DNA from: a virus
Taxonomy: Duplodnaviria > Heunggongvirae > Uroviricota > Caudoviricetes
Reading direction: 5' to 3' (one strand)
DNA length: 64,000 nucleotides
Virus record (IMG/VR): IMGVR_UViG_3300046522_000748
Part shown: in pieces, positions 4,389-25,879 of the stretch
How positions within the stretch are numbered: position 1 is the first letter of the stretch
Layout of the letters: the number at the start of each line of letters is the position of its first letter
Notes under the pieces: generated by a model
Seen by the model: the letters and a program-made list of their open reading frames with translations, nothing else
Database searches by the model: none
What the model was told of the DNA's origin: nothing
Translations under genes and position numbers: made by a program

Positions 4389-4552
4389 AACAGATCCTTG
4401 GAATCCGCATTCGTTGTAGTGCCTCCGTTACCACATGCAGATTCAATAAGAATAAGTCATGAGTTTAAGAATTCCATTGAGCTATTTACCAAGATGGAGG
4501 CGGTAGGTCGCTAACCGATTATCAATATACCAAGCTGTAAATTAATATTCAA
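4389..4552 (-). promoter_or_regulatory. promoter plus structured 5' leader (motif copy A)
   Basis: TTGAAT-17-TATATT at 4552-4524; GCCTCC/GGAGGC closing stem; CATGACT..GCATG; shared with 25661-25879. Confidence 0.6.
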
Positions 4553-4573
4553 GTATAGCGACCGTTTGAATGC

Positions 4574-4927
4574 TTACTTCTTTTCGGGATCACAGAAGCT
4601 GGCAACTTCAATATCATAATCGCCAGTTTTTTCATTTTTAACGATGGACTTCAGATACTGCTGACAGAAAACCGGCCTGTCGTTCTCGGTGGAACGGATT
4701 TTATACAGCTTCAGACGATTTCCGGCCACGTCGCCCTCAATAAAAGAGACGTTATTCAGTGCGGGAGCGCTGTTAATTTCTAGCCCTGGGGTGGCGGGTG
4801 CCAATGCAGGTGTTGCTGCTTGAACTTCAGGTGCCTGTCGGTTCTGATGAGCACAGCCGGATAATATGAGCACCAAAAAAGCTGCGCCGAGGGTTGTGAT
4901 CGATTTTGCGCCGCATAAATTCAACAT
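4574..4927 (-). CDS. putative lipoprotein
   Basis: Hydrophobic signal ending in LSGC lipobox, then Pro/Ala linker. Confidence 0.7.
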   Translation of the reverse strand: MLNLCGAKSITTLGAAFLVLILSGCAHQNRQAPEVQAATPALAPATPGLEINSAPALNNVSFIEGDVAGNRLKLYKIRSTENDRPVFCQQYLKSIVKNEKTGDYDIEVASFCDPEKK

Positions 4928-4951
4928 CTTAATTCCTCTGAGTTATAGATA

Positions 4952-5548
4952 TTACATTCCGCTAATTACGAAAAGTGGGTCGAAAAATACCGTTCTGATC
5001 TTGTAATCGATGTGTTCGTCATACAAATGTCCCAAATAGATCGGGCTGATTTGATTGATGACCGTATGCAGCTGCTTGATGTGCTCAAGGCCATTATTTT
5101 TTGCATCGTCAGGCAATTCCCAGGCGGTCGCGATCTTGATGAACGCTGCTTCTGTTTGGGTTTGATCGCAAAAAAGAGGAATGCCATGAGTTGACTCAAC
5201 TATTTGCTTGTTGAGCCAGCTGAAAATATCTGATTGTGAGTCCGTGTCAGTGTTCGTTGGCTTGGGGTGCTGATACTGAACCCAGAAGGTAGAAATCAGG
5301 CTGCCGTTGTCGATATGCATATCTAGACACAGGCTGTATCGCGTATCAAACAGCGTGACCCCATCACCATCAAAGCGATCAAGATTTTTACTTTCACCCA
5401 AAAACACATCCAAGGTGAAATAGCCGCAACTCTCTTCATCCAAATCGGTGGAACTGGTGCCTTTCAGTGAGTCAAAAAGCGCTTTATGGTCATTGATGAG
5501 CATTCGAAGATATTGATGTGCAGACATTCTGGACTTCATGTGACCCAC
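4952..5548 (-). CDS. hypothetical protein
   Basis: 198-aa ORF. Confidence 0.7.
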   Translation of the reverse strand: MGHMKSRMSAHQYLRMLINDHKALFDSLKGTSSTDLDEESCGYFTLDVFLGESKNLDRFDGDGVTLFDTRYSLCLDMHIDNGSLISTFWVQYQHPKPTNTDTDSQSDIFSWLNKQIVESTHGIPLFCDQTQTEAAFIKIATAWELPDDAKNNGLEHIKQLHTVINQISPIYLGHLYDEHIDYKIRTVFFDPLFVISGM

Positions 5549-5575
5549 CTTGGATGTTGATATTTTCGTGGTTAC

Positions 5576-5602
5576 AAAAAAGCCCCATTACGGGGCTTTT
5601 TG
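5576..5602. terminator. bidirectional intrinsic terminator
   Basis: AAAAAAGCCCC-atta-c-GGGGCTTTTT. Confidence 0.75.
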
Positions 5603-5658
5603 GATGAACGGCATTTTGCCATGATGTGGCTGACAGATGCCTGTTCAGTAGTTTTTAA

Positions 5659-5958
5659 TCAGGCAGCACTCGATTGGGAGCTTTGTGCGAAGATTTCACG
5701 AACGCGACCGACGATGGCCTGGGTGAAATGCTTCAGCGGCTGATCCTTGTAAGCGTCTGCCAGTGGCATGCCATCGGCTTCCAGGTTCAGCGAGGCGGAC
5801 AGGCCGGTGTAGAACTTGCGTTCCTTCTCTTCGGACATGCCGTAGGTGGCTTGCCAGTATTGACGGCCAGCCATGATGTCTTCGACGATGGTGACTTCTT
5901 TTGCAGAGGCGTTGCGGTAAAATTCACTGGCGCGTTGTTTGTCGGCAGCAGATTTCAT
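5659..5958 (-). CDS. hypothetical protein
   Basis: 99-aa ORF with AAGGGA RBS, own promoter and terminator. Confidence 0.75.
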   Translation of the reverse strand: MKSAADKQRASEFYRNASAKEVTIVEDIMAGRQYWQATYGMSEEKERKFYTGLSASLNLEADGMPLADAYKDQPLKHFTQAIVGRVREIFAQSSQSSAA

Positions 5959-6113
5959 GTAGTGTTCCCTTGAGCGGATTCTGTAATGGTAGCGGCAGGA
6001 TATTCTGACGCATGATTGGGTAATTCGTTGTCTTCCGATGTTGGCGAGGTGGTTTCGTTTACCCTTCTCGCCTTTCGTGTTTCCAGTATATTAATGCTTA
6101 ATCACACTGTCAA
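5959..6113 (-). promoter_or_regulatory. promoter plus ~120-nt structured leader
   Basis: TTGACA (6113-6108)-17-TATACT (6090-6085); GGCGAG/CTCGCC stem; GGGTAA/TTACCC crossing pair. Confidence 0.55.
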
Positions 6114-6139
6114 CAGCATATTTCGATTATTCGATATTA

Positions 6140-6922
6140 TTATGCGGTTTCACCGATCAGCTGCTCCAGCGTGTAGAGGATGGCCTCTTCGTTCCGGTAC
6201 AGGCCGTGATCGATGTAACGGTTATTGGCTACACGAAATGGCCCACCGTCTTGCTGTGGGACAATTGAATGGCCACACACAAGGTACGGAATGCCGTCTG
6301 TAATGTAAGCATGCGATTCAGAATCCTTATTCAGCTCGGCGGCTTTGATTTTTGTGCGGCCCCATAGGCACTGGTGCAGCAGGTCGCTGTTTTGAGTGCT
6401 TAGAGATGATACAAAGTCCCATGGCAGTTCTTGCAACATTACCGCCAACTCCGTCCAGCTGGAGCCCATAGGCACTTCGCCATGAATGAGGCCGAGCAGT
6501 GGTGTCCCGTCATGATCCTGGTATTCGATGGCAATTGGAAGATACTTGATCGTTTCAATGAAATCTTCAAGCACCGCTCGTTTCTGATTCTCGATCCACT
6601 CTCCCCCATTGTTGTAGGAGATCCTGGAGTCTTTATCTTCACGGGAGTAATCGTGCATCAACACCTGACGGGCTGCGTGGGAGGTTACGCAGTCGTGATT
6701 ACCCTGAACCGCAAGAGCCCATCCTTCTTTAAGCAAGTCCGCTATACGATGGCTCTCTGGGCCTCTATCGCATAGATCCCCTGCCAAAAAAAGCCGGTCT
6801 TTGGATTTATCAAAACCAACACGTTCGAGTGCTTCTTCAATTTTAGAGATGCACCCATGCGCATCACCTGACCAGTAATCAGTCCCTTTGGTGTTGCGTT
6901 TCACTTCCATGAATTTCGTCAT
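6140..6922 (-). CDS. metallophosphoesterase, lambda NinI/PphA-like Ser/Thr protein phosphatase
   Basis: GDAHG, GDLCDRGP, GNHD, IHG and CGHS motifs. Confidence 0.9.
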   Translation of the reverse strand: MTKFMEVKRNTKGTDYWSGDAHGCISKIEEALERVGFDKSKDRLFLAGDLCDRGPESHRIADLLKEGWALAVQGNHDCVTSHAARQVLMHDYSREDKDSRISYNNGGEWIENQKRAVLEDFIETIKYLPIAIEYQDHDGTPLLGLIHGEVPMGSSWTELAVMLQELPWDFVSSLSTQNSDLLHQCLWGRTKIKAAELNKDSESHAYITDGIPYLVCGHSIVPQQDGGPFRVANNRYIDHGLYRNEEAILYTLEQLIGETA

Positions 6923-6937
6923 TAATTTAAACCTTGA

Positions 6938-7477
6938 TTATTGCTCGCCGGTAAATTGTACGGCACCCCAGCAGAAGGTCAATGCCAAAGCCAAGGCGCA
7001 GGATTTTAGTAGCCATGCGCAGCCACACACTAGCACTTGCTGGCGTCTCAACCGGCGCATTTCATCCTTCGTGGCCTGAATGATCTTGCTGGAAAAGCGA
7101 TTCCCCCGATTACAGAGGACACGGCACGAGTCCTCTACTTCGCAGCGTTGCACCTTGGCCATGACAGCGTACAAGCCTGAAAGGCCAACGACTCGATAGT
7201 AGGTTCGAGGGCCAACCTTGGCGGACAGCGTGTCCTTAATGCTCAGCAGGTTTCCACCAGCCATCCTTGTCATTGATGCCGCCACTTCTTGTGCTTGTGA
7301 GGCTGTCCGATACCATGAGGTTTCAATCGGTTCGTCGATGGTCAGCTTCTCGCCCTGGGTCAGTACAAATGGCCCATCTGAAATCATGAAGTGCTTACCG
7401 ACGATGCGAGCATCGTCAAAATCATCCGGCGGGGGTTGCTCTGTGCGACTTACTGCTTGTTCTGCGTTGAGGGTCAT
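6938..7477 (-). CDS. hypothetical membrane-anchored protein
   Basis: C-terminal hydrophobic helix; start MTLNAEQ. Confidence 0.6.
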   Translation of the reverse strand: MTLNAEQAVSRTEQPPPDDFDDARIVGKHFMISDGPFVLTQGEKLTIDEPIETSWYRTASQAQEVAASMTRMAGGNLLSIKDTLSAKVGPRTYYRVVGLSGLYAVMAKVQRCEVEDSCRVLCNRGNRFSSKIIQATKDEMRRLRRQQVLVCGCAWLLKSCALALALTFCWGAVQFTGEQ

Positions 7478-7491
7478 CAAAAAACCATGGA

Positions 7492-7989
7492 TTAAATGTA
7501 ATTGAACGTTTTTAGTGCGTAGAAGGCGGCGGCGATTGGGGCAAGAAGCGCGCACGCCTCGATCAAACGGAAGCCAAAGATCTGCGCGTTTTGATAGTCA
7601 ACAATTTGCTTCATGAGTGAAGGTGTCCACTCAAGCAAATTTCTTTTGTGCTCTTCCAGGTACTCGGTCGCTTCACGGGCTTGGGCCTCAGTCCCCGTCC
7701 GCTGTGTCGAGCAGATCGAGATGGTGGCGCTGGCGCGATAATAGTGCCAGAAGAAAAGCACTACTTTTGTGTCCAGGGTGTGATCGCTAAAGGCGGTGGC
7801 ACGGTAACGTTTGCCTGTTTCGAATACATATTCCCAGGCACCGAAAAGGTTGCGGCGCCACGGAGACTGAAGCACTGTACTGCATTCAATTCTCTGCCCT
7901 TCTGGTACAACCAGCGGTTCTTCATGAGTGACGATCTGTGCTTCGTTCTTTTTCCAAAATACAACTGAATCTGGCGCTTCTTGCGTCAT
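7492..7989 (-). CDS. hypothetical membrane-anchored protein
   Basis: C-terminal hydrophobic helix; start MTQEAPD after AGGAAG. Confidence 0.6.
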   Translation of the reverse strand: MTQEAPDSVVFWKKNEAQIVTHEEPLVVPEGQRIECSTVLQSPWRRNLFGAWEYVFETGKRYRATAFSDHTLDTKVVLFFWHYYRASATISICSTQRTGTEAQAREATEYLEEHKRNLLEWTPSLMKQIVDYQNAQIFGFRLIEACALLAPIAAAFYALKTFNYI

Positions 7990-8018
7990 GATGGAAACTT
8001 CCTGGCTGGAGCGTCGGA

Positions 8019-8225
8019 TTAAGGTTCGTACTTTTGGGTAAAGTCGTTGTTGTCCAGCGCCCATTGAGCGGCTTCGCGGGTTTGGTAGTATTCTTCCGAT
8101 TCGCGAGAGCATGGCCCTGAATCATCAAAGGTGCCGATGTAAAAGCCAGCCCCGCTTTCGAGGACTTTGAGCGGAAGCCGCTGTTTCAGGAATTCGTAAG
8201 CCAGTTTGCCATGAGGAACGTGCAT
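8019..8225 (-). CDS. conserved plasmid/ICE hypothetical protein
   Basis: LPLKVLESGAGFYIGT..GPCSRES.EYY motif recalled from conjugative elements; GAGGTG RBS. Confidence 0.8.
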   Translation of the reverse strand: MHVPHGKLAYEFLKQRLPLKVLESGAGFYIGTFDDSGPCSRESEEYYQTREAAQWALDNNDFTQKYEP

Positions 8226-8255
8226 GTCGTAAACACCTCAATAATTTATATGGAT

Positions 8256-8295
8256 ATTATACCAAAAAGCGCCACCCATGTCAATTGTGTTGACT
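8256..8295 (-). promoter_or_regulatory. sigma70 promoter with operator TGTCA-N7-TGACT (8279-8295)
   Basis: TTGACA-17-TATAAT. Confidence 0.75.
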
Positions 8296-8337
8296 TGAGT
8301 GGCGCTATTCAAGGTGCCTTTGTGGCAAGCTTGGCGA

Positions 8338-8901
8338 CTACAGCAGGCCTCGGAAGGTCAGGCTGATTCGCGGGCCGCAGGCAGCAGAGTGCTTGGGAAT
8401 GCGATGCAGATCCAGGTGCTGCATGCCAGCTGGCATTTCCAGCAAGCTGCCGGAGGCCAGACTGACCTTCACCACTTCAGCAGCTTCACCTTCGGGCACA
8501 CGAGGTGGCCTTGGCTTGAACCACAATTCGCGGACGGCGCCAAAGCTGTACACCAGGATCGGGCGCGAATGGTCGATGCTTGGGCTATCATCGGCGTGCC
8601 AGCCCAAGTGGTTATGCTGGTTTTCGTACCCATTGATGAACAGCGCTTCAAACTTGCAGCCGTACTGCGCCTCAGCTTGAGCCTGAATGCCCTTGCAGAT
8701 CTCATCCCACACCGGATTCGGGGTATACGTCCGTGCGTATGCGCCTTCACCATAGGTATACGGCTCACCCTTGTCGCTGAAGAAGACTTCTTTGCGCGGT
8801 GCTTCGCGCTGTTCCCATGGTAGATTTTTCCACAGGTGATCGAAGATCTCGGCGGCATTGGCAATCGCGTTGGGGGTGTAGATCGGCATCGTGGGCTTCA
8901 T
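8338..8901 (-). CDS. AlkB-family 2OG-Fe(II) dioxygenase
   Basis: GWHADD (HxD), distal H in LHRIPK, RISLTFR. Confidence 0.9.
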   Translation of the reverse strand: MKPTMPIYTPNAIANAAEIFDHLWKNLPWEQREAPRKEVFFSDKGEPYTYGEGAYARTYTPNPVWDEICKGIQAQAEAQYGCKFEALFINGYENQHNHLGWHADDSPSIDHSRPILVYSFGAVRELWFKPRPPRVPEGEAAEVVKVSLASGSLLEMPAGMQHLDLHRIPKHSAACGPRISLTFRGLL

Positions 8902-9101
8902 GTGTTCATTCCGTTTCTCGTGAGATTCCGTTTGTTGGAGTATCTGAGCGAGGATTATAGCAAGCCTGCGGCATTCGGTCAATGTCATTTACACTTCAAT
9001 ATTTTGTATTGGTGTACTTGCTGTTGGTCGAAATCATCAGTTCCGAATTTTGCCTTGACTGTCGCGCCAGCGCACCCAGCAGCACCGCTTGATACGTAGA
9101 T

Positions 9102-9275
9102 TCATAGCGAGATCACCCGATTAAGTAGCTCTTCAGTGACTTGGCTGTCCCGGTTCAATTTTCTCTGACGTTTATCGACTTCCAACATGCGTCGATCACG
9201 CTCTTCTTGACGTGCTGCACGCTCTTCAGGCGTAAGCTTCGCCCGAGCCTGCTCGATAAGATCTTCCAGTGTCAT
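9102..9275 (-). CDS. small helical hypothetical protein
   Basis: GGAGAG RBS; similar ends to 9354..9569 (MTLEDLI...TEELLNRV). Confidence 0.65.
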   Translation of the reverse strand: MTLEDLIEQARAKLTPEERAARQEERDRRMLEVDKRQRKLNRDSQVTEELLNRVISL

Positions 9276-9353
9276 GCTTCTCTCCCAGGCAATGGTTATT
9301 GTGTATCGATAAGTCAAAACGCCCACCGTGAAGTTCGGCGCATTAAAACCACA

Positions 9354-9569
9354 TCAAATGGTGCAGACTTTTCTCAGCAGCTCTGCCGTAGGCTGTTTAG
9401 CGGCAATCCGTTTCTCGCATTCAATGCTCCATTGGCGAATGCGTGCATAACTTTCTTCGCGGTTTTTTTCATTACGCAGAGTGATTTCGGCTGTTTCTTC
9501 CGGAGAAAGTTCACCGGCTTCGTACTTCTGCATTTTAATGGACAGATCGATCAGTGCTTTAAGGGACAT
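9354..9569 (-). CDS. small helical hypothetical protein, paralog of 9102..9275
   Basis: MSLKALI...TAELLRKV; AGGTG RBS. Confidence 0.65.
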   Translation of the reverse strand: MSLKALIDLSIKMQKYEAGELSPEETAEITLRNEKNREESYARIRQWSIECEKRIAAKQPTAELLRKVCTI

Positions 9570-9690
9570 GCTTCACCTATTAGTAGATGATCATTATATC
9601 GCTTATTGGGTGCTATTTAACAACAAAAGACCTGTGCCTGCTATTGCATGAAAAAGTCTATGGCGCCACACAGGGCGCCATATCGAGTGT

Positions 9691-10296
9691 TCAATGCTGG
9701 GATTTTAGATGGCCAGCCTTAACGATCTGGGTTTGCGCACCCTGTACGGCGGCATTCAGCTTCGTGGCTCGCTCCAGAGCCATTGCGGCTTGCGCTCTGA
9801 AAGCGTCCACGGCCAGCGTGCAGCCCGCCTCCAAGTCTTCTTCGTTGCATTGAAGCGAACACTCCGGCACAAAATCGCTGCCGCTCAACATCGGCTTGAG
9901 CAGTGCGTCGAATTTCACCCGGCTGCCATTGGTCTTTTCGTAGTGGTTGGCTATCTTCTTCACTTTCAGCGGCGTGACCTTAACTTGAAGGCATGTGGTA
10001 TTGCTTTCATGATCCTGTTCCATCCCAACGCGAATATGCAGCAGGGTATGGTCAAAACCCTTGGTCTTGAGATAGCCGGTCTCAACAACCACACGGGCTA
10101 GATGTAGCTGTTCGGGAGTCGCCACAAGGCGCTTCGAATCAACCATTCCGTTTCTCCAGCCGTGATAATAGCTGCGGCTTCGGTCGCTCCCAGGTTCGGC
10201 CTCCCCTTTGTATCCGGCCTGATACCCTTCCAGCATTTCAGCCTCATCGAGACTGGAAAGGTCTTCAATGGTTGCTGCGGATTGAAATTCGCTCAT
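9691..10296 (-). CDS. hypothetical protein with N-terminal Rmf-like motif
   Basis: EGYQAGYKG...SYYHGWRNG. Confidence 0.7.
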   Translation of the reverse strand: MSEFQSAATIEDLSSLDEAEMLEGYQAGYKGEAEPGSDRSRSYYHGWRNGMVDSKRLVATPEQLHLARVVVETGYLKTKGFDHTLLHIRVGMEQDHESNTTCLQVKVTPLKVKKIANHYEKTNGSRVKFDALLKPMLSGSDFVPECSLQCNEEDLEAGCTLAVDAFRAQAAMALERATKLNAAVQGAQTQIVKAGHLKSQH

Positions 10297-10349
10297 GTGT
10301 TGTCCCTCGCTGCGTTATCCGGCCAGTATCAGCCATTGATCTTGATCGA

Positions 10350-10718
10350 TCAAGTTGGGCCGATTGGAAGAAATCTTTTTTTCTTGTGGTCGTAACCAAT
10401 TTTTTTGTAAAAATCGAAAATAGTTCCGCTTTCCTCTATCAGCAACCCTGTGAATTGATTGTTGTACTCGGGGTTTGCTGCGCAATATTCATAAGTGCGT
10501 TGTGTATGCAATTCAAAGTGGAACGGCGCATCGTATGGGGCTGCTTTTCCAAACACTCGATTGGTTTCAAACTTGTCAAACGCCCAGGTGCTTACCTGAT
10601 GAACATATGAAAACTTTTCGTCCGATCCTGGGTTAACGATATGATGAAGCTTGATTGGCGCTTGCCGTTCAAACTCGACAATCCAATACTGAAACTTGTT
10701 GTTCAGCTCTGAATTCAC
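10350..10718 (-). CDS. hypothetical protein
   Basis: GTG start coupled to upstream stop. Confidence 0.6.
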   Translation of the reverse strand: MNSELNNKFQYWIVEFERQAPIKLHHIVNPGSDEKFSYVHQVSTWAFDKFETNRVFGKAAPYDAPFHFELHTQRTYEYCAANPEYNNQFTGLLIEESGTIFDFYKKIGYDHKKKRFLPIGPT

Positions 10719-11071
10719 GCAGTTGCTTCCTCTGTCATGGATGGGGCTTCATTGCCGATGGCAATGGCAACCGAGGGTTTTTCGCCGTCACGTTCGGCTC
10801 GATACGCTTTAAGTTTCACTGCCAAAGGCTCTTTGCGCTCCAGGCAAAAGGTGATGAATCGATCACGAGACACCGCCAATCGTACAGGCAGCGGTAGCGC
10901 CTCGTATGCCCCTTCAAAAAGGGAAGTAAGGCCAGCGTCGTCTGTGAGGCCGTTCTCGACCATCGAGAGCATTTTGGGGAACACCACATTTTCAACAGAC
11001 GCCCAGTGTTTCTCTAGAAATTCTGCTGGATTGGCTACGTTTGATAGTTTGTCTGCAATCTTTGAAAACAT
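10715..11071 (-). CDS. hypothetical protein
   Basis: 118 aa, GAAGGA RBS. Confidence 0.7.
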   Translation of the reverse strand: MFSKIADKLSNVANPAEFLEKHWASVENVVFPKMLSMVENGLTDDAGLTSLFEGAYEALPLPVRLAVSRDRFITFCLERKEPLAVKLKAYRAERDGEKPSVAIAIGNEAPSMTEEATA

Positions 11072-11243
11072 GATCCTTCCCCTATTATTAATCGCTTATT
11101 ATATAATTCTTTTCGTCTTTTGCAACCATTTGTGTCGAATGATATGGGTTGCTGATCCTGCTTTTGCCACCAAATTTGTTTGTGTGATTGACACCATCTT
11201 CGGGCTTCGATATACTCGCTGAAACTCTCAAGGCTCTCTCATC

Positions 11244-12101
11244 ATGTCCGTATTTATCGCCAAAGACCTCGGCCTTCAAGTCGTCAGCAATCTCGATTTC
11301 ATGTCCCGTCCTGGCATCTACTGGAAATGGGGGAGTACCATTTTTTCTGGCCATAGCTTCGGCACGGCATTGGGGCCAAAGCACTGTTTTTTCCAGGCCG
11401 GTTTCCATGATTTCGCTCACTGCATTGACTTCATTATGCGTGGCAAGCAGGATCGTGTGACCAGCAGTGGCTTGAGTTTTCACACACCCTGGCAGTTCGT
11501 TAATCCTGTGTTTGGTCATATGGACGGCGAGCCTAAAACCTCGCAAATCACTCGCTGTGAAGCTCGGGTCTTTGCGCTTCAGGCCTACCTGATGAACAAG
11601 GAGATGGGGTTCATCATCGACTCACTGGATTACGACGATGAGGGAATTCTGCGTGAAGCAGGTAAATTGTCTCACCTGCGTGAGAAATCGCAGGAAGAGT
11701 CTATGGAATGGAGCCGCTCCTACTCGCTGATCCAGGCAGTTTCCATTGAGGAATACGCTCGGGACAAGGGTGAACTGGAATACATCAAATGGCAGGATTC
11801 AGAGGTGTTCCTTAGCGAATACGGTTTTGGCTATAAATCTGGTCTGAACTATAAGGAGCGCTCGGTCCGCTGGAAGGAGTGCTTCGTCAACTTGATTATC
11901 GAAGAATACAACCGTTTCCAAAACCCGTTTGTAGAAAAGCGTATCAGTCGCGCTGTTACAGCTCTGGGGGAGCGCCTGCGGCGTTTTCATAAGGCTCATG
12001 GTTTCGTGCCAACCGATGATCATTTCGGAATTCGCCACGCAGGTATCGAAACGCAGAAACCTGCCTCAACCACCATTGTTTTGGAGGCTTACAATGCCTG
12101 A
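11244..12101 (+). CDS. hypothetical protein with zincin-like HDxxH...E motif
   Basis: FHDFAHC...EARVFALQ; promoter TTGACA-17-TATACT at 11188-11216. Confidence 0.7.
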   Translation: MSVFIAKDLGLQVVSNLDFMSRPGIYWKWGSTIFSGHSFGTALGPKHCFFQAGFHDFAHCIDFIMRGKQDRVTSSGLSFHTPWQFVNPVFGHMDGEPKTSQITRCEARVFALQAYLMNKEMGFIIDSLDYDDEGILREAGKLSHLREKSQEESMEWSRSYSLIQAVSIEEYARDKGELEYIKWQDSEVFLSEYGFGYKSGLNYKERSVRWKECFVNLIIEEYNRFQNPFVEKRISRAVTALGERLRRFHKAHGFVPTDDHFGIRHAGIETQKPASTTIVLEAYNA

Positions 12102-12333
12102 TGGAAATATTCGCGTCTGCGTCCTTCTTCATCCAGAGGCTTCAATAGAAGCTGGCGATGTTGTTCGGGGCATTGCTCCACAATTCTACCTCGACGATAT
12201 GCATAAGGCCGCTGCGGCTTGGGCCTGCGAGGAACCAATCGTAAGTGTGTACGCCGCCCAGGCTGTTTTTGAAAAACTACTACGGGATGGTTTTCAGCTT
12301 CGATGGCACACGCTGGGGCTTGATCGCATCTGA
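12094..12333 (+). CDS. hypothetical protein
   Basis: GGAGG RBS, overlaps upstream stop. Confidence 0.6.
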   Translation: MPDGNIRVCVLLHPEASIEAGDVVRGIAPQFYLDDMHKAAAAWACEEPIVSVYAAQAVFEKLLRDGFQLRWHTLGLDRI

Positions 12334-12340
12334 TATTTTT

Positions 12341-12380
12341 TGTCAGTGTGATTGACACTGCATTCGTTTATCGCTATACT
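12341..12380 (+). promoter_or_regulatory. sigma70 promoter with perfect operator TGTCA-N7-TGACA (12341-12357)
   Basis: TTGACA-17-TATACT. Confidence 0.8.
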
Positions 12381-12414
12381 GTTCCCATCAAATACAGGAA
12401 CAGGAGAGACGCGC

Positions 12415-13065
12415 ATGGCTATTACTCGATTTGATTTTGATCGCACGGGTAGCGCTGAACGTTCGCATGGATATGGTGCTTGGCCAGAAGGCGCGTACTG
12501 TCCTGTTGGCAGCTCCAACCTTGTCAGCGAACGTGAGCAGCGCTGTGGCGCCCTGGTACTCTGGGATGAGTACGTCGGCCTGTGCCTGTCTGACTATGAG
12601 CGTAATGGCTACGATGACTCTGATTTCTTCATGGAGATCTGGAATCCTGAAGCCCAGGCCGTTGAGACCATTTTGTTTGCAACCACTCGTGGATGGACGT
12701 ACCCAAGCTATGGCAGTCGTCCAGACGCTACGCCTGAGGTGCGTGAGCTGGCTGCCCAATGGCGGGAACAACAGCGTCAGCTGGCTCTAAAGCAAGAGCG
12801 TAAGGCGCGTGCGGATCTGGTTCGTAAAAAGCGTGCGCTGCTGTGGGAGCTGGCCAAGCGTCACGGTTTTTCGTTCTCGCGTATTCGCAAGCTGACGCGC
12901 ACTGAGCCTGAGCCCCGTGCAGACGCTGTGGTGGCGCTGCTCAAAAGCCAGAAGTTGCGCTCCCCCTTCCGCATCAATATGCAAGATCAGTTGGTAAAAT
13001 GGCTGAAGGACAGCGCGCCGAAGTATCCATCGCCTTTCAGCTTCAAGCAGTGGGAATACGTTTAG
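12415..13065 (+). CDS. conserved mobile-element hypothetical protein
   Basis: ERNGYDDSDF..TTRGWTYP..DATPEV motif; AGGAG RBS; terminator at 13081-13105. Confidence 0.8.
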   Translation: MAITRFDFDRTGSAERSHGYGAWPEGAYCPVGSSNLVSEREQRCGALVLWDEYVGLCLSDYERNGYDDSDFFMEIWNPEAQAVETILFATTRGWTYPSYGSRPDATPEVRELAAQWREQQRQLALKQERKARADLVRKKRALLWELAKRHGFSFSRIRKLTRTEPEPRADAVVALLKSQKLRSPFRINMQDQLVKWLKDSAPKYPSPFSFKQWEYV

Positions 13066-16804: not shown

Positions 16805-16808
16805 GTTT

Positions 16809-17810: not shown

Positions 17811-17823
17811 GGTGTTGATCCTT

Positions 17824-18132
17824 TTAAATGTTCATGTTGTAGCGTTGAATAACCACAACGTTTCGTTTGTTCTTGAAAATCAGCCGAGAAACCCCGCCGT
17901 TGAAGTGCCCGCAGCAATCATGCTCACAGTAGCAGGTTTGGCGAAAGTAATCGGCAAGGCTGCCTCGCAGAGTAAGGCGGGACGCGGAAAAGGAGGCAGG
18001 CAGTCGAATGTGGGTTACGATCACCTGACTTTCGCCATCGTCTTCCATGCGCATTCCACCAGGAATGGCTTTGACGGTGCCGATGAAATCCTCGGCATCG
18101 TCACTCGTGTAAAGATGAGCTTTATATGGCAT
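17824..18132 (-). CDS. hypothetical protein with CxCEHDCCG motif
   Basis: Cys/His cluster; AGGAGG RBS; promoter at 18160-18187. Confidence 0.75.
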   Translation of the reverse strand: MPYKAHLYTSDDAEDFIGTVKAIPGGMRMEDDGESQVIVTHIRLPASFSASRLTLRGSLADYFRQTCYCEHDCCGHFNGGVSRLIFKNKRNVVVIQRYNMNI

Positions 18133-18210
18133 TGCCTGCCTCCTTCTTCTGATGGAATCATTATACCGAAATCAACGCAATTGTCAATGTAAAAAACAAC
18201 GTAGACCGCA

Positions 18211-18741
18211 TTAAACGCGCATGGCTGAGATTTCCCGACAGAGGTTGTTGACTGAGGTTTGCATGGCGCTGGCTCTCAGGCGCAGTTGATCCACTTTACC
18301 TTTGATTTTTTCATCGCTGCTTCCGGCCATCTCCAGCAGCGTGACCAGAATTTCCTTGGCTTGTCGGTGGTCTTTGACATCCAGGAATTCGGCAGTCTGG
18401 TGCTTTAGAGCCCCGACCACATCAACGTAAAAATCATGAGCCTCTTGGCTGGAAATGTGTTTTGGCCATGTATCGTTTCGACCAAACCGCTCCATGAATT
18501 CCACATCCAGTTTCAGCAAGTCAACGTCTGCGTGCAGGATCTGCATTTCTTCCGGCTTGAAATCCGCTACGTAACCCCAGGACATACCGGCATCGAGAAT
18601 CAGTTTTCCGTTCTTGCGTTTGCAAATCCGGGTCGAGAAGTTGGTGTAATGAAGGCGTTGGTTGAGCGTGACCGCCAGCGCGACGATCATGCCTTCTGCA
18701 ATTGCATTTCCTTCCCGATCAATGCCGTTTGGATTGGTCAT
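18211..18741 (-). CDS. hypothetical protein
   Basis: 176 aa, GAGGA RBS. Confidence 0.7.
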   Translation of the reverse strand: MTNPNGIDREGNAIAEGMIVALAVTLNQRLHYTNFSTRICKRKNGKLILDAGMSWGYVADFKPEEMQILHADVDLLKLDVEFMERFGRNDTWPKHISSQEAHDFYVDVVGALKHQTAEFLDVKDHRQAKEILVTLLEMAGSSDEKIKGKVDQLRLRASAMQTSVNNLCREISAMRV

Positions 18742-19260
18742 GATGCATTCCTCGCCTGAATCCCGATAATTTGGGTTGAGTCAAAATAAAAAAGAGGGCC
18801 GAAGCCCCCTTTGGGTGCGTAATACCAAATTCTGTACGGGCGAGCCGCTGCCGGAGACACGTCTTGGGCGCAAAGCACCATTGTTAAATGGTTGATCTGA
18901 TCAGTCGAAACAACTCCCTCTTCGAGAGAGGGTCTCATTCCCAGGAGCTTAGAACGATGCACCTACTAGCACGCTTTCGCTTAAGAGTTGGTTACGTTCA
19001 TTACACCGTTACCATACAGCTAACTGATCAGATACTTTGCCGAACTTCTACTACGCTTGAGATTTAATAATAACAAAACAACAGAATGAAGTCAACATTT
19101 GCCTGAAATTAAGGCATCAGTAGTCGTTAATGCGACATATGTCAAGTTTTTAACACTGACATTTGTTGACTATTTCACTAGGTCTCGTTATATTTTCCCT
19201 CAGCGCTCTGTTCTGTGCGCCACCCACCATATTCGGAATTCATCACAGTCGGAGCAATTG

Positions 19261-20907
19261 ATGCAGTGGTTCAACAACTGTAATTTCCAGTACAAATTTC
19301 AGATTTCATTTTGCATGGTTTCCCTCATTTTGATCGGTATTTTTGGCTGGGCCTTCTGGGACAATGCAGAGAAAATGTCGATGAAAGGCCTTGATACTCA
19401 GCTTATGAGTGCAATCAGGGCCACCGAGTTCGTCATTGACCCGTCGCTTCATGACGCGGCCAGCAATGTCGGCAAAGACGCCAGCTTTGGCGCTGATCAG
19501 TCCTTGGCCCTAACGCGCTTGTCGAAAAAACTCGATGTGCCTGTTCTTTATACGTTCTTCCTGAATAGCCAGGGTGATGTTGTCTTCGGTGCGTCTTCGT
19601 TGAGCGATTCTGAAGCCAGAAGCGGCACGAACTACTACCTTCGCCATTATGACAATGCTGAAGCCAAGACGATCATCCGAGAAGTGCTGAAAACAGGTAA
19701 ATCAGACAGCCTTGAATACACTTCTCCTGAGGGTGAATACCGTGCCCTCTACGCCATGGCGACAACGCCAGCTGGTAACCGCTATGTGATCGTCGCTGAA
19801 ACCCCGTTGCATGACGTGAAAGCGGTTCGCAGTGCCGTGGTGCAGGAAGTCATGTTGGTGGCCATTGTGGTGTTTGCTGTGGCTGCACTTGCGGCATTCT
19901 TGATGGGCACCCTCATCTCCAGGCCTCTGAATGCATTCCTGTCGGCCTTGGATGAGTTGTCGTCTGGCACAGGTGACTTGACCCGAAAACTGCCCGTCAC
20001 CAGCCGTGATGAAACGGGTCGAATGGCTGAATCTTTCAACCGGTTTGTGATTTCGCTTCGAGACATGTTCATCGCTGTGCGGGATGACGCCTCCAAATTG
20101 CGGACTGGTTTTTCTGGCATGTCCAACATGATGGATGTGGTTAACAAAGACTCGCATGCTCAAAGCGACAAGGCAGCTGCCACAGCCGCAACGGTTGAGG
20201 AAATCACCGTCAGCATGAGCAACATTGCTACCAGCACTCAGGAAGCGGCACAGGTTGTTGAAGAGTCCAACAACAAATCGCACTCCAGTGCCGTATCTGT
20301 CGGCAAGGTGGTGAAGGAAATCGAGCAGATCAGTGCTCGTGTGGCGGAGCTGTCGGTGGTTGTTCAATCGCTGGATGATAAGTCGCGCAGCATTTCTGGC
20401 ATCGTCAGCGTGATCAAGGAAATCGCCGATCAAACCAACCTTCTGGCCCTCAATGCCGCTATTGAGGCTGCGCGGGCCGGTGAATCTGGTCGGGGTTTCG
20501 CTGTTGTGGCCGACGAGGTGCGCACCCTGGCAAACCGCACTGCCAGCGCTACGGTGCAAATTGGCGACATGATTCACGCCGTAGGTGCTGAAACCGCACA
20601 GGCCACGCAGAAAATGCGTCTGACCAGCGATTCGGTGGCAGCGGGTGTGCAGTTGTCTGCCGAAGCTCTGATTCAAATCGAGGGCATCGGCAATGACATG
20701 GATTCGATTGTTCAAACCATTCACGTCATCAATCAGGCAACCAAGGAACAGTCATCGGCCACTACTGAAATGGCTACGGCAGCCGAGTCCATCAATGTCG
20801 GTAGCCAGCAGAGTCGTGCCGTAATTCAAGAAGCCCAGCGTTCTCTGAGTGAACTGGACGACGTTGTTAATTCCTTGAACAAAATGGTTGGTCAATTCCG
20901 ACTCTGA
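19261..20907 (+). CDS. methyl-accepting chemotaxis protein
   Basis: Two TM helices, HAMP region ([15 protein letters not shown]), [34 protein letters not shown]; GGAG RBS before 19261. Confidence 0.95.
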
Positions 20908-21152
20908 TTTATTGATAAATAACCAGCCGCCATCGCTCATGCCATGGCGGCTTTTTTGTTTAATTGGAAATGGCGAGGAAAGGAAGAAGAGAGGAAGAGG
21001 CACGACCCCTGCTGGCCACCTTCCGTAGGAACTACGGGAAAGAACGTCAAACCAAATCATGATTTCCTGATTAATAATTGGTGAAGACGTAAGCGCAATC
21101 GGTGTATATTGACATGACGGAATTACAACACCAGGAATGTAAAGAGACAATC

Positions 21153-21434
21153 ATGGATAAGCAAACCCAATTACTGGAGCAACACAGAGAGGTGGTTGAG
21201 CGTATTCGGCACGGCTATCAAGCAATCGGCATCATTATTGTGATGAGCATAATCATTTTTTCGACCATCGCCGTTAGTGCCTTAACACACCCTGATCAAG
21301 GCCTTGTCCAGGCATTTGCAACATTGCTGATGTGCTGGCTGGCACCGTGTTGCGTTTTGAATACGGTGCGCCAGATCGTACTGTTAAAAGAAATAGCTAC
21401 TGCGCTCAATCACGAGATCAAGTCAGCGGGCTGA
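21153..21434 (+). CDS. small two-TM membrane protein
   Basis: Two hydrophobic segments. Confidence 0.6.
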   Translation: MDKQTQLLEQHREVVERIRHGYQAIGIIIVMSIIIFSTIAVSALTHPDQGLVQAFATLLMCWLAPCCVLNTVRQIVLLKEIATALNHEIKSAG

Positions 21435-21457
21435 ATAATTAAACGAGGAAAGCAGGC

Positions 21458-21742
21458 GTGGATGAATATTTATTGATGACAAAAGAACGGAAATCGCTTG
21501 AGAAGAAGATAAAGCATTACCAGCGCTTAATTTGGGCACTCAAAATTGGTGCCGTAATTATGATCCCAGCGCTCTTGGTGCTCAGTTATCTGGCTCAGGA
21601 TTTGCTGGATCGGCTGGTGCCTTTGGGATGGGTAGCACTGTCTCTTTGGACAACGCCTGCTGGTATTAAAGCATCGCGTAATTTAATTGCTACCTATGAG
21701 GCTAAATTGTCAGAGGTTATTACTGGTGAGAAGCTTGTTTGA
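21458..21742 (+). CDS. small two-TM membrane protein
   Basis: Two hydrophobic segments, same architecture as upstream gene. Confidence 0.6.
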   Translation: MDEYLLMTKERKSLEKKIKHYQRLIWALKIGAVIMIPALLVLSYLAQDLLDRLVPLGWVALSLWTTPAGIKASRNLIATYEAKLSEVITGEKLV

Positions 21743-21788
21743 TTCTGCCGGGCGTCTTGCTTATAAGGCGCCCAACACTTAAAAGAAT

Positions 21789-22076
21789 TTATCGATTTTT
21801 GCCTTTCATTTCATCCAATTCAATCATGTCCCAGTTTTCCTGGATTTTCGCTGACTTATCAACCACCGCTTGGTAAGCCAGGGCGTACAGCTTTGCCTGC
21901 TCCAGACTCGTGGCCATCTCGCAATGAAGGGCACGCAAACCGCTTCTGTCGATACGGGCATTAACGGCGACTTTGCCATCAACCTGAGCTTCAATGGACA
22001 TTGTGCGCATTGGTGATTGGGTAATATTATTTGACCAAACCTCCACAATGATCCTGTCTGTGTAATTATCTAGCAT
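21789..22076 (-). CDS. hypothetical protein
   Basis: GAGG RBS. Confidence 0.6.
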   Translation of the reverse strand: MLDNYTDRIIVEVWSNNITQSPMRTMSIEAQVDGKVAVNARIDRSGLRALHCEMATSLEQAKLYALAYQAVVDKSAKIQENWDMIELDEMKGKNR

Positions 22077-22095
22077 GTCGCCTCTTGTGCTTGTG

Positions 22096-22611
22096 TCAGT
22101 GTGTAAACGTCAACTGAATTTCAATGTCTTTTATAGCCTGTTCGATGAACAGGAAGTCGCCCAGCGGCTTGGTTGTGGTGTGCTCGACGTACCGGCACAG
22201 CAGCTTCTGCTTGAATTGATCGCGCAGCCCTTCCCACTCCGGCGCCGAGTCAATTTTTGATAGCACGGAAATGCCGTCGAGGTATTTCAAGACCTCTTGA
22301 ACGATCCGTCCTTTATGGACATTTTCGAACAAATATTCGTGTAGGACGCAGATCTTTTGACCCTCTTGGTCTACCAGTTCCATGCTGAAGTCCGTGTCGA
22401 TGCAAAGTGTGGCGAGCGTGGGCTTGCCTTCGCTCACGGCTTTTTGGCGCAGCTCTGCCTCTTTGGTCTGCCGATAGCTGCAAGTCGAGCTATGCCCTTC
22501 CAGGCTCCCATTAATGGCCGGTTCAGAGTGGCCGCACTGGGTGCAACACTGATATGGGTTTCGTCCGCCGATGGGTGCTTTGGGGAAGTCATGGTAAGAA
22601 ATTGCATTCAT
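22096..22611 (-). CDS. hypothetical protein with N-terminal Zn-binding motif
   Basis: CTQCG...H..C; downstream of operator promoter 22721-22760. Confidence 0.7.
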   Translation of the reverse strand: MNAISYHDFPKAPIGGRNPYQCCTQCGHSEPAINGSLEGHSSTCSYRQTKEAELRQKAVSEGKPTLATLCIDTDFSMELVDQEGQKICVLHEYLFENVHKGRIVQEVLKYLDGISVLSKIDSAPEWEGLRDQFKQKLLCRYVEHTTTKPLGDFLFIEQAIKDIEIQLTFTH

Positions 22612-22743
22612 CTGAAGTGATCCTCTATTTGTTCCTCAGCGGTCTCTGGTTGCTCCAAAGCTTCTTGGGTGTCAGCAATGATGATTTTGCTAATGACGGC
22701 TTATTTCTGATTTACGCTTTATTATATGCAGTTATTCAGCATA

Positions 22744-22760
22744 AGTCAATTACGCTGACC
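22744..22760. promoter_or_regulatory. operator AGTCA-N7-TGACC
   Basis: Overlaps -35 of minus-strand TTGACT-17-TATAAT. Confidence 0.6.
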
Positions 22761-22846
22761 TCGCCGCACCTCGCACACTGGCTGCCATCCACATTGACAA
22801 ATGCCTGTGTTTTGTTATGATACTCAAAATCAAGGAACTCGCAATT

Positions 22847-23962
22847 ATGACCAGTCGTATCATGCCGCTCCACCCAGCAGAAGGAACCTGTCAGCCGCAA
22901 ATCGAGCTGGTTCATCAGGTGATGCTGTGTGATGCCCGGCTATCAAACTGTCTGCCAGAGCAGACAATGAGGGCGCTGGGTGACATTGCGCAAATTGCCG
23001 GGGTTTACCACAGTAGTTTGATCGAGGGTTACGATGTCCAGCCGGAGGTGTTTCTCAACGCAATTGCTGCGGGTGAGGATACAGAGGTTGCTGAGGTTCG
23101 GTCACTCCATAAGGCGACCGTGGAATTGGCGAAGGCGGATCAATTTGGAATGCCCGCGTATTCGGCTGACTTTATCAAATCAGCCCACGGTCGGTTTTAC
23201 CGGCACGTCAATGAAGCGGTGGCGAACGAACTTATCCAGCAGCCAGGGGAATATCGTCGTCGCTTGGTATCGATTGGTAAGCACGTTCCTGTGGAGGATG
23301 AGGCAGTCCCGGCGATGATGGCCAAGTTGCAAGAGTCCTATCGATTCGCAGGGTCTAAGGCGCACAAAGTAATCAGTGTGCTTGGGCTTCATCACCGGTT
23401 GGCCTGGATTCACCCGTTTCTCGATGGAAACGGTCGGGTGTCGCGGATGGTGTTGCAGCTCGCTCTCCAGAACGAGGGGTTCAGTCGTGTGTGGTCGATT
23501 TCGCGGGGCCTATCACGCCTGCGTGATGACTATTACAAAGCGCTATCAGGTGCTGATCAGCCTCGCATGGGTGATCTCGATGGCCGGGGCAACCTCAGCA
23601 ACAAGCGGTACGTGGAGTTCATCAACTTCATGTTGCTCGTGTGTGGCGAGGAGATCCAGTATGCGCAAAACTGCCTGGATCGATCTCGATTGGCTGGCTG
23701 CATCGACGCTTATTTTCAGGATGCGTCGTTGCGCCCAGAGGGTGTGAGCGAAGACAGTCATCTCGCCTGGAAGGCGCTATTCTTTCAAGGGACGATGCCA
23801 AGGGGCGAATTCAAGCGCCTGATCCCTAAAGGTGATCGTACTGCCACGGGTCAAGTTGCTGCATTGGCGAAGGCTGGACTGGTGGTCACTAAAACCAGCC
23901 GTAGTGATCTGACGCCGAAGATTCCAATGCCATTGGCGCGGATGATCTTTCAGGATTTTTGA
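22847..23962 (+). CDS. Fic family protein
   Basis: HPFLDGNGRVSR catalytic motif; SSLIEG; promoter TTGACA..TATGAT at 22794-22821. Confidence 0.92.
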   Translation: MTSRIMPLHPAEGTCQPQIELVHQVMLCDARLSNCLPEQTMRALGDIAQIAGVYHSSLIEGYDVQPEVFLNAIAAGEDTEVAEVRSLHKATVELAKADQFGMPAYSADFIKSAHGRFYRHVNEAVANELIQQPGEYRRRLVSIGKHVPVEDEAVPAMMAKLQESYRFAGSKAHKVISVLGLHHRLAWIHPFLDGNGRVSRMVLQLALQNEGFSRVWSISRGLSRLRDDYYKALSGADQPRMGDLDGRGNLSNKRYVEFINFMLLVCGEEIQYAQNCLDRSRLAGCIDAYFQDASLRPEGVSEDSHLAWKALFFQGTMPRGEFKRLIPKGDRTATGQVAALAKAGLVVTKTSRSDLTPKIPMPLARMIFQDF

Positions 23963-24092
23963 CCGCGTGGAAGCAAAAAGCTCGGTGAATACTGCGCCAA
24001 GCTTCGTAACCATGCCGTACTTCGACCACAGTGTTTGCTATCATGGCCGCGCTTTGAGCCGAATCTCATCAAATAGTACAGAGGTCGCTACT

Positions 24093-24326
24093 ATGTCCCA
24101 GCTTGAAACTTCCCATGAAGACCAGCAGCGTCAGGAAAATGAATCGCGGTTTGCCGAGTCCTATGTTGCCAAGTGCGAACGGATCATCAAAGCCGCAGAC
24201 GCTATGACTCAGCAGGAAAAGCATGCGCTGGAGCTTTGGGAGCTGGAAAATATCACCGGAGACGGCAATCTTGGCACCAGTGATTGGCCGGGCTGGGATG
24301 AGGTGATTTCCCGCATTAGTCACTGA
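24093..24326 (+). CDS. hypothetical protein
   Basis: GAGG RBS; terminator 24355-24380. Confidence 0.65.
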   Translation: MSQLETSHEDQQRQENESRFAESYVAKCERIIKAADAMTQQEKHALELWELENITGDGNLGTSDWPGWDEVISRISH

Positions 24327-24562
24327 TGTGTGAAAGGTTATCGGAACGCAAATAAAAAGGCCCGGTATACACCGGGCCTTTGGATTGCTCTGACACTCCA
24401 CACATCAATACCTACCCATGCACTTCATCATGCATATACGCCAGTAAAGACAACACCATCGCTTTCGCTAAGTTATCAGCAGTTCAGTGCGGCCGACTCT
24501 GGTTATCGTTGTGTCAGTATTCGTATTGTATTAACCAACGTAAGTTCGGTCAATATTAATCT

Positions 24563-25606
24563 TTATCTTATTTCCAGACTCGATGTTTTATTCAAGTTGA
24601 CGAGGGCTCGCTCGCGAAGAAGATCATTGGCATCTCTTTTAAGAATGTCGGAAACTTTGCTTATGTTGCTCAGTAGATCGGGGCTCGACTCTGATTTGGC
24701 TGCTGACAAATAATGATTGGTCTCTGATTTCATTATTTTGGCGGCAAATTCAACGGCTCCGATATTGGGCGCTTGGTTTTCGCGAACTCGGGAGGGTTGT
24801 AATGACAGCTGAAGTACGTTCAGAGCCTCCGCGATACGCATCCCAGCTGTCAGGTTAAAAGCAGCCTTTAGATAGCTGGATGGAAGCTCTCGTGTCTTCA
24901 CGATCTCATCGATAAGTGCAATGCCAGTATTGCCTTCTTTTTGCATGACCGAGATTATGTCATGGGCGAATGGTGTGTTATCCAGAAGAGATTGGCACGC
25001 TACTGAAACCATCGGTGTCGGATAGCCATTAATTTCTTTTGCGGCGGATCTGAAGCCGAGTGCTAAATGAATATCGTCTTTTAAGTCATATAGCGTTTCC
25101 GATTGATTTCCTCCAATTATTTTATCTCGTGTTTCAAGATAAAGATTTTTCAGGCGCTCAAGTTTCTCCATCTCGGATTGAGGATCTTTATCCTTCAGGT
25201 GGTTTACAACAGTGCTGACAGAAAACAAATGACCGAGCGTCTCTGGTTTAATGAGTGCCAGGGAGAAGGTGCTGGTGGAGGATGCATTTTTGACAGTGTA
25301 TGTGCGTTCTGGTTCTTCATACAGCGCAGTCATGAACTGCTTAAAGGTCTGATCAAGGTCTCGGCCATTTACCGATTTTTTGGCGATATCTACAACATAT
25401 GTGCTGGAATCCCTTGGGACGAGAAACGATCCATCCCATGTGCCGTGAATCGGCATGGAAGCCATTTTTTGCTTGCTGAAACTGTTCTTGTCGAAAAGTT
25501 CGGGCTCGTTTTCTCTGGTCGTATTGACCAAGATGATCGCAACAACCTCCTCTCCCGGCTTTATTTCTTGGCTCGTAATCGCATCTGTCACGCTGAACGT
25601 TTTCAT
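24563..25606 (-). CDS. hypothetical protein
   Basis: 347-aa ORF, GGAG RBS. Confidence 0.75.
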   Translation of the reverse strand: MKTFSVTDAITSQEIKPGEEVVAIILVNTTRENEPELFDKNSFSKQKMASMPIHGTWDGSFLVPRDSSTYVVDIAKKSVNGRDLDQTFKQFMTALYEEPERTYTVKNASSTSTFSLALIKPETLGHLFSVSTVVNHLKDKDPQSEMEKLERLKNLYLETRDKIIGGNQSETLYDLKDDIHLALGFRSAAKEINGYPTPMVSVACQSLLDNTPFAHDIISVMQKEGNTGIALIDEIVKTRELPSSYLKAAFNLTAGMRIAEALNVLQLSLQPSRVRENQAPNIGAVEFAAKIMKSETNHYLSAAKSESSPDLLSNISKVSDILKRDANDLLRERALVNLNKTSSLEIR

Positions 25607-25660
25607 GAAAATCTCCCTGGTTATAATTTCATTGTATCATGAGGCCATCAGACATTCCCA

Positions 25661-25879
25661 TTGACAATTAATTGATGTAGTTGTACACTCTCTACATCAA
25701 ACGGATTTCTGGTATTCAGTGCCACCAAGACGTTGATGGCTTGACGAAGCTGCCCCGCTCGCCTCTTTCGAGGTTGGTTAAAACGTAACGAAGCACCCTA
25801 CTTCTCCATGACTGATCCTTCAGGCGCATGCAGTAGGTAATGAGCGGAACCGAAATCATCGTGCGATGGGGTGAACAGC
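25661..25879 (+). promoter_or_regulatory. promoter plus structured 5' leader (motif copy B)
   Basis: TTGACA-17-TACACT; CCGCTC/GAGCGG closing stem; CATGACT..GCATG; GGTAA. Confidence 0.6.

Follow-up and report, generated by a model that had tools for sequence, protein, structure and literature searches.

What do two genes on opposite strands of one viral DNA share ahead of their coding sequences, and what might the shared part do? The question is raised by a 64,000-nucleotide stretch (the window; IMG/VR virus record IMGVR_UViG_3300046522_000748, Caudoviricetes) in which gene A, on the minus strand, and gene B, on the plus strand, each follow a leader, here called leader A and leader B (Table 1). 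An earlier note on this DNA had proposed that the two leaders share a promoter type and an ordered series of RNA elements, that both proteins begin with related helical domains resembling the Pfam family Glyoxalase_8, and that leader and domain form a portable, autoregulatory cassette. Here we report, from computational analysis, that the B-type leader RNA is a structured family of the 5' untranslated region (UTR) that is absent from Rfam 15, and that promoter, structured leader and an N-terminal domain (N-domain) of about 60 residues make up one well-supported, conserved cassette in front of variable C-termini. To the statement as a whole, that the leader is a bistable switch whose effector is the N-domain encoded just downstream, we give a probability of roughly 45%.

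Both sigma70-like promoters were found with the 17-bp spacing described in the note, and the series it listed (5' arm, UUGGU(U)AAA, CAUGACU...GCAUG, GGUAA, 3' arm) is present in the order and at the places it gave. Read from the 5' end, the family motif consists of a hairpin P0 with a G(G/A)CG loop, a GCCCC-like linker, the 5' arm of the closing stem P1, a hairpin P2 of variable sequence, a conserved junction (GGUCAAAACG or near variants), a variable stretch, a composite helix P3, the element GNAAY (GGUAAU, GGCAAC, GAUAAC and similar) and the 3' arm of P1. P0, which is not in the note's list, is common to leaders A and B, where it lies just 5' of the closing stem; U(A/G)CC separates it from the 5' arm. 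The conserved unpaired nucleotides are those of the P0 loop, the GCCCC linker, the GGUCAAAACG junction and GNAAY. Upstream of the motif, the -35/-10 pair of leader B is also kept in homologous loci, and in eight loci the P0 block begins 47 nt past the end of the -10 hexamer. B-type leaders carry a further upstream hairpin, H1, whose basal stem shows compensatory changes (RNAalifold, five close B-type leaders).

Covariation was assessed on 18 distinct model-aligned sequences (the earlier set had 13). Paired cells made up 85.7%, changes on both sides were seen in 24 of 25 modelled pairs, and the covariation score was 0.604 against 0.247 for shuffled alignments (0/500), with slid partners reaching at most 0.158. 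The alignment was fitted to the model and therefore favours the modelled structure; we nevertheless take the signal as real because the slid controls are low and because the P1 arms are entirely different in sequence between loci (CCGCUC/GAGCGG, CCGCCC/GGGCGG, CCGCUU/AAGCGG, UCUAUUC/GAAUAGA, CUGCUC/GAGCAG, CUACCC/GGGUAG). P0 and P1 are 97-98% paired, and the covariation that the note had read into the closing stem was borne out, P1 being 97% paired with double changes in all six of its pairs. The G-U pairs lie on the sense strand, which identifies the molecule as RNA of the mRNA strand. Comparison with Rfam 15, which the note had also called for, gave nothing relevant for leader A or B at E<=10, and at the gathering threshold the whole window contained only a tRNA. 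In 26 of 28 pairs the leader core equals or exceeds the neighbouring N-domain coding DNA in conservation, and within that coding DNA the differences fall mostly at third codon positions; selection therefore acts on the domain at the protein level and on the leader at the RNA level.

Protein B has few homologues (seven in an index of 5.8 billion proteins), and their upstream regions align well even at 35-39% protein identity. A profile of the first 62 residues reached 62 representative clusters with protein lengths of 53 to 423 aa, mostly 150-420, and the domain is N-terminal (approximately residues 1-60) in all of them but P0058 (762 aa, seven internal partial matches). Given this fixed place and these variable lengths, an N-terminal domain is evidently fused to variable C-termini. 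The loci inspected comprise close relatives (L121-L124), metagenome loci (L125-L129), mid-range members (L139-L141), the most divergent members (L146/L147, L148, L149) and one annotated locus (L142), the 904-kb megaplasmid pBASL58 of Pseudomonas sp. Leaf58, a member of the pMPPla107 family (PMC6482414). The motif was present upstream and on the same strand in 17 of 17 domain-encoding loci, the most divergent members included, so that the expected occurrence ahead of other family members is confirmed, and the distance from motif end to AUG was 26-38 nt in every locus. C-termini and neighbouring genes vary across these loci, as a cassette reused before varied proteins would have it. The single domain gene of pBASL58, DV532_RS25855, follows the plasmid's single strong motif (86.5 bits), which lies 28 nt from the annotated start. 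Another match on this plasmid (348105-348226, 18.5 bits) was dismissed as chance: it lies within a coding sequence, 183 nt from the next gene, and that gene is without the domain.

The pairing of RNA and domain extends to chromosomes of another phylum. Among 401 Streptomycetaceae genomes searched with the PF20066 (Glyoxalase_8) profile, five Streptomyces genes match profile positions 4-57 only, at 51-55 bits, above the gathering cut-off of 23.7 bits. The B-type model places the motif directly upstream and on the same strand in two of the five (19.3 bits, E 4e-4 to 1e-3; 13.8 bits), and by homology it stands before four of the five. The Streptomyces leader has a P0 of GGCU-CGGUGC-AGCC, P1 arms GCUCGCG/CGCGAGC, P2 CCUUUCAAGG, the junction UUGGGUGAAUGCACCG and GACAA before the 3' arm of P1, with 34-35 nt to the AUG. 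In the reciprocal direction, BLAST of this leader over the 401 genomes gave five full-length matches, each of them (5/5) beside the domain. From the Streptomyces leaders and this reciprocal search it follows that the RNA-domain pairing spans Pseudomonadota mobile elements and Actinomycetota chromosomes. In one of the five (genome G634, L158:1501-1700) the leader is intact and the domain gene has decayed, with helix 1 deleted and the rest out of frame with the ATG. A 401-genome sample of Actinomycetota searched with PF20066 returned a single weak match (L152), with no model match upstream of it.

Folding predictions bear on what the leader does. Left unconstrained, many leaders fold not into the motif but into an extended hairpin, to which P3 contributes its 5' strand and, with the junction after it, pairs colinearly with the approximately 30 nt that separate P1 from the AUG. 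Within this hairpin the Shine-Dalgarno (SD) sequence is matched by a pyrimidine-rich stretch, and UCAUG at the start codon by the conserved CAUGA. Scored relative to dinucleotide-shuffled ribosome-binding-site (RBS) regions, the best duplex that the motif's 3' half forms with the RBS region has a negative z in 15 of 15 leaders (mean -2.65, with a Stouffer Z of -10.3 that overstates independence, the leaders being related by descent), as against a mean z of -0.07 and a Stouffer value of -0.3 for the 5'-half control. Enforcing P1 rather than blocking it changes the minimum free energy (MFE) by +0.56 kcal/mol on average, and the probability that the SD-AUG region is unpaired falls from 0.56 when P1 is enforced to 0.29 when it is blocked. 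Roughly half of the leaders have the sequestering hairpin as their MFE fold, and so do all Streptomyces leaders, where it is long and covers both SD and AUG (z -2.1 to -3.7). For the platform of leader B the predicted alternative partner is the P3 region, by duplex and by constraint folding, and in leader A the MFE fold (-37.6 kcal/mol, z -2.8) sequesters the platform through pairing with 4461-4428. The constant distance from motif to AUG is explained by the colinear competitor helix that spans that stretch. An intrinsic terminator is present in neither leader A nor leader B.

We consider it very probable, on the strength of these predicted folds, that the leader is a cis-acting, bistable translational switch whose P1-closed state is permissive. 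In one fold the compact motif would form (P0, and P1 enclosing P2 and the composite P3, with the GGUCAAAACG-like and GNAAY junctions unpaired), leaving SD and AUG accessible. In the other, the 30-nt stretch would pair with P3's 5' strand and the junction after it, burying SD and AUG and breaking P1 and P3. A binder of the conserved junctions or of the P0 loop may then set the balance of the two folds.

The membership of leader A was judged with two covariance models, R1 and R2, whose training set contained B-type leaders and left out leader A. Over the full model length, leader A is the second-best match in the 64-kb window (R1, 15.3 bits, E 0.037; R2, 17.5 bits, E 0.012), and, besides leader B, the only one above noise, the next match being a chance one at about 8 bits. 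In a 205-kb search its E is 0.12 and chance matches of about 15 bits occur; the score by itself is therefore borderline, which counts against membership. Apart from the score, the motif of leader A lies in a 5' UTR that follows a promoter, has the right orientation and ends 29 nt before the AUG, within the family distance. It repeats the order of P0, linker, P1, junction, P3 and GGUAA, and its SD-sequestering hairpin is the strongest of all members (duplex z -6.6 and -5.8 in two runs). Its 135 nt are also 100% identical in two other elements (L119 and L120), in which the upstream flank is 84%, the N-domain coding DNA 85-92% and the remaining gene 62-88% identical to the window. Residues 1-55 of gene A are nearly invariant in two relatives; the C-terminus has diverged, with 51% overall identity to the farther relative.

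It could be argued that the likeness of leader A to leader B reflects chance or convergence between unrelated leaders, and that the two N-terminal domains are unrelated helical segments. The modest model score, comparable to the best chance matches in larger searches, would fit this, as would the absence of P2 and of the upstream hairpin H1 from leader A. No further A-type relatives were found in the protein index, which leaves leader A with no covariation of its own. At the protein level, BLASTP between the A and B N-termini is not significant, hhalign gives a probability of 0.2-0.3%, and a hidden Markov model (HMM) of the B-type domain, run against all open reading frames of the window, matched gene B alone. 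The N-domain of B is modelled by AlphaFold with helices at 10-28, 34-45 and 50-59 (mean confidence score, pLDDT, 88), and that of A with the same layout (10-23, 32-42 and 48-53; pLDDT 74). In the ESM Atlas the nearest neighbours of both N-termini are clusters that bear Glyoxalase_8 (features 0.83-0.85), some of them common to both; structure matches there, with TM-by-query of 0.63-0.76, fall for both N-termini in clusters that are 100% PF20066, although these are short helical stretches and provide a lead only. Predicted structure and Atlas neighbours thus suggest that the A and B N-domains are related, a relation not detectable by sequence, and the earlier claim of kinship finds weak support in helix layout and neighbourhood and fails in BLASTP, hhalign and HMM comparison. 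Its comparison with Glyoxalase_8 fared similarly. P0001 and P0002, the products of genes A and B, gave no match to PF20066 at E<=1 and stay below the gathering cut-off. Seven of ten B-family members have weak, sub-threshold matches to Glyoxalase_8 positions of about 19-64 in constant register, the best score being 18.3 bits among ten individually listed members and the lowest E 7.6e-4 among the 66 scanned. Searches of PHROGs, PADLOC and PDB sequences gave no significant match for the proteins. With position, strand, order of elements, alternative hairpin and shared Atlas clusters set against it, we find coincidental resemblance unlikely, and regard leader A as a likely, divergent variant of the family.

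If the leader is a switch, something must tip it, and the likeliest effector would be the N-domain encoded just downstream, which would exert feedback control by acting on its own mRNA, perhaps while it is being translated. We favour the N-domain because it is the sole feature common to the regulated genes, because its linkage to the leader persists through deep divergence and between phyla, and because, as residues 1-60, it always emerges ahead of the rest of the protein. Promoter, leader and N-domain move as a unit before varied C-termini, on giant Dot/Icm-type plasmids and related elements and on Streptomyces chromosomes. That the N-domain acts on its own leader is a serious possibility that falls short of even odds. 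The more specific proposal of a portable feedback cassette, in which the nascent ~60 residues would bind, perhaps in cis, to the junction core of the leader in their own mRNA and flip the SD/AUG switch, is tentative.

Several observations weigh against such a switch with the N-domain as its effector. Translation would be activated when P1 is stabilised, an unusual direction for autoregulation. The N-domain is near neutral in charge (mean +1.7), and its model finds only weak, non-specific helical matches among solved structures (Foldseek E>1, VIA Z<=4.2). In the Atlas the Glyoxalase_8 N-module is recorded in other bacteria as a fusion to a ClpX zinc finger, Clp_N, a Lon substrate-binding domain, ankyrin and leucine-rich repeats. 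P3 is poorly defined (71-84% paired; outer stem 71%). Leader and domain are physically adjacent, so that some co-inheritance is expected without a functional link, and one Streptomyces locus (L153, genome G488, 1270-1500) has kept the domain while losing its leader to unrelated sequence, with the final ~35 nt, which include the SD, left in place. This locus is a natural leaderless variant of a Glyoxalase_8-type gene. The fusion partners listed above hint that the N-module may be an adaptor or interaction module.

The switch could instead be flipped as a riboswitch or by a trans factor (a small molecule, or a protein or small RNA supplied by another part of the element or by the host, for example a regulator of Csr/Rsm type), the N-domain being merely a functional module that the genes share. 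Unpaired conserved junctions within covarying stems and a mutually exclusive platform are the classical riboswitch layout, and the N-domain shows neither an RNA-binding fold nor a strongly basic charge. GGA motifs, present in the H1 hairpin and at the SD, would suit a factor of the Csr/Rsm kind. However, the regulated genes have only the N-domain in common, unlike the regulons of riboswitches, which point to a metabolite, and the gene contexts hold no metabolic hint. A common element-encoded trans factor is also unlikely given that the hosts are Pseudomonas-type megaplasmids and Streptomyces chromosomes, and pBASL58 has one motif for its one domain gene. We therefore think an outside ligand or factor unlikely, though less so than a switch that needs no ligand at all. 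In that last case the motif would fold first and permit brief translation before the SD-sequestering hairpin takes over, or the hairpin would melt with temperature, and expression would be confined to a burst, for example after the element enters a new cell. The near-equal predicted energies of the two states, the frequency with which the sequestering hairpin is the MFE fold, and the position of the motif 5' of the competing sequence, so that it forms first, are all consistent with such a device. A purely kinetic device leaves unexplained both the strongly conserved unpaired nucleotides and the 135-nt invariance of leader A, and we rate it as improbable. Control by the N-domain is the reading we favour.

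As a separate observation on the GGA motifs, GGAUU at 25702-25706 is invariant in five close B-type leaders, the H1 loop of L141 (~620-640) reads CAGGAUG, and leader A carries such motifs at 4405-4395. They recall CsrA/RsmA-type binding sites, and a Csr/Rsm control layer may exist.

Table 1. Positions in the window of the two promoters, leaders and genes, and of other genes noted
Feature	Position	Strand	Remarks
Leader A promoter	4524..4552	-	TTGAAT-17-TATATT, TG before -10; sigma70-like, called from sequence
Leader A core RNA motif	4418..4519	-	likely divergent variant, without P2; second-best match of B-only models in the window
Leader A P0 hairpin	4516-4506	-	GGUU-AGCG-ACC
Leader A P1 arms	4501-4496, 4426-4421	-	GCCUCC, GGAGGC
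Leader A junction	4492-4481	-	UUGGUAAAUAGC
Leader A P3	4461-4434	-	GGUAAC at 4432-4427
Leader A expression platform	4386..4420	-	SD AAGGA 4399-4395, AUG 4388-4386
Gene A (P0001, 419 aa)	3129..4388	-	residues 1-55 (4388-4224), predicted three-helix domain
Leader B promoter	25661..25689	+	TTGACA-17-TACACT; sigma70-like, called from sequence
H1, upstream hairpin of leader B	25695..25737	+	invariant GGAUU; in B-type leaders, missing from leader A
Leader B core RNA motif	25736..25850	+	covariance models R1, R2: 113-120 bits
Leader B P0 hairpin	25738-25751	+	GCUU-GACG-AAGC; linker GCC next
Leader B P1 arms	25755-25760, 25842-25847	+	5' arm, 3' arm
Leader B P2 hairpin	25761-25774	+	
Leader B junction	25774-25785	+	UUGGUUAAAACG
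Leader B composite P3	25797-25837	+	UAAU at 25838-25841
Leader B expression platform	25848..25882	+	~30 nt; SD GGGG 25868-25871, AUG 25880-25882
Gene B (P0002, 287 aa)	25880..26743	+	residues 1-60 (25880-26059), conserved three-helix N-terminal domain
Methyl-accepting chemotaxis protein gene	19099-20907	+	around gene B
Fic-domain gene	22817-23962	+	around gene B
LPD11 gene	26890-27588	-	around gene B; polyvalent-protein-associated
HipA-like kinase gene	32084-33409	-	around gene B
tRNA gene	48744-48817	+	63 bits; sole Rfam match in the window

Proteins A and B are both recorded on a contig of 1,136,521 bases. Other genes near the two loci encode a metallophosphatase and a 2-oxoglutarate-Fe(II) oxygenase. 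In L123 and L124 the Fic gene and a 220-aa gene keep their synteny with the B-type gene, and a DNA-ligase-like gene lies just 3' of the domain gene copy in L146/L147. pBASL58 carries MPF_I; there, a gene for an RtcB-family RNA ligase lies ~800 bp upstream of the motif gene (L142:1865-3085, equal to pBASL58 130724-131944), with genes for a lytic transglycosylase and a single-stranded-DNA-binding protein (SSB) downstream.

Wider searches for the motif or the domain were less productive. A loose scan of viral contigs for CATGACT..GCATG..GGTAA gave more than 118 loci, and none of the 100 screened (L001-L100) was real by covariance model. A scan of genome contigs for the P0 loop, GCCCCGC and the junction gave nine matches, apparently chance ones given their low model scores and their spread over diverse high-GC taxa; the same scan of viral contigs gave none. 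Alignment of the B-type domain against genome contigs yielded no confirmed relative, megablast of window positions 3000-9000 against plasmids and phages no match, and tblastn of the domain against phages no match. Three other identities for the leaders were also rejected. A single-strand DNA promoter or origin is ruled out by the opposite strands of genes A and B, the G-U pairs on the sense strand and the conserved double-strand promoters. Leader peptides were set aside on inspection of the sequences, the small open reading frames of the leaders differing between loci. The hammerhead-like core suggested by CUGAU lacks the other core elements, and no Rfam match accompanies it.

The leader shares with translational riboswitches and orphan riboswitch candidates a covarying multi-helix fold, conserved junctions and an SD/AUG platform in the 5' UTR, here by computation. 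It differs from them in that it has no Rfam 15 match at E<=10, its genes share a protein domain rather than a pathway, and no candidate ligand emerged. Autoregulatory leaders bound by their own product are familiar from ribosomal proteins (S15, L20), the ThrRS operator and RegA and gp32 of phage T4. As in those systems, a structured leader directly precedes the gene of the presumed binder and control is predicted to run through access to SD and AUG; in contrast, the presumed binder here would be a small N-terminal domain, reused before unrelated C-termini and without a known RNA-binding fold. With regard to PF20066, the Streptomyces leader genes match the N-terminal ~57 profile positions and the B family does so weakly in the same register, whereas no C-terminus matches the remaining, glyoxalase-like part of the profile. 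Long-range alternative pairings also set SD/AUG exposure in hok-type mRNA refolding and in RNA thermometers, and folding order could matter here too. Neither hok-type elements nor RNA thermometers, however, are known to have a conserved multi-junction core with invariant unpaired nucleotides or to be linked to a protein domain.

These results add a well-supported RNA family that Rfam 15 lacks and whose predicted two-state platform is unusually clear, and they tie this RNA across two phyla to a module without an assigned function, which makes the role of that module a testable hypothesis. With Pseudomonas sp. Leaf58, a cultured host whose pBASL58 sequence is complete, and the Streptomyces strains, such tests are practical. 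Were the proposed mechanism true, the leader would be a new class of RNA and the Glyoxalase_8 N-terminal module would gain its first function, as an RNA-binding domain, with relevance for the biology of gene regulation and for synthetic dosage control. Giant plasmids and other mobile elements would then carry a modular operator-plus-repressor unit reused before many proteins, and whatever C-terminal cargo followed the cassette would come under the same control of dosage.

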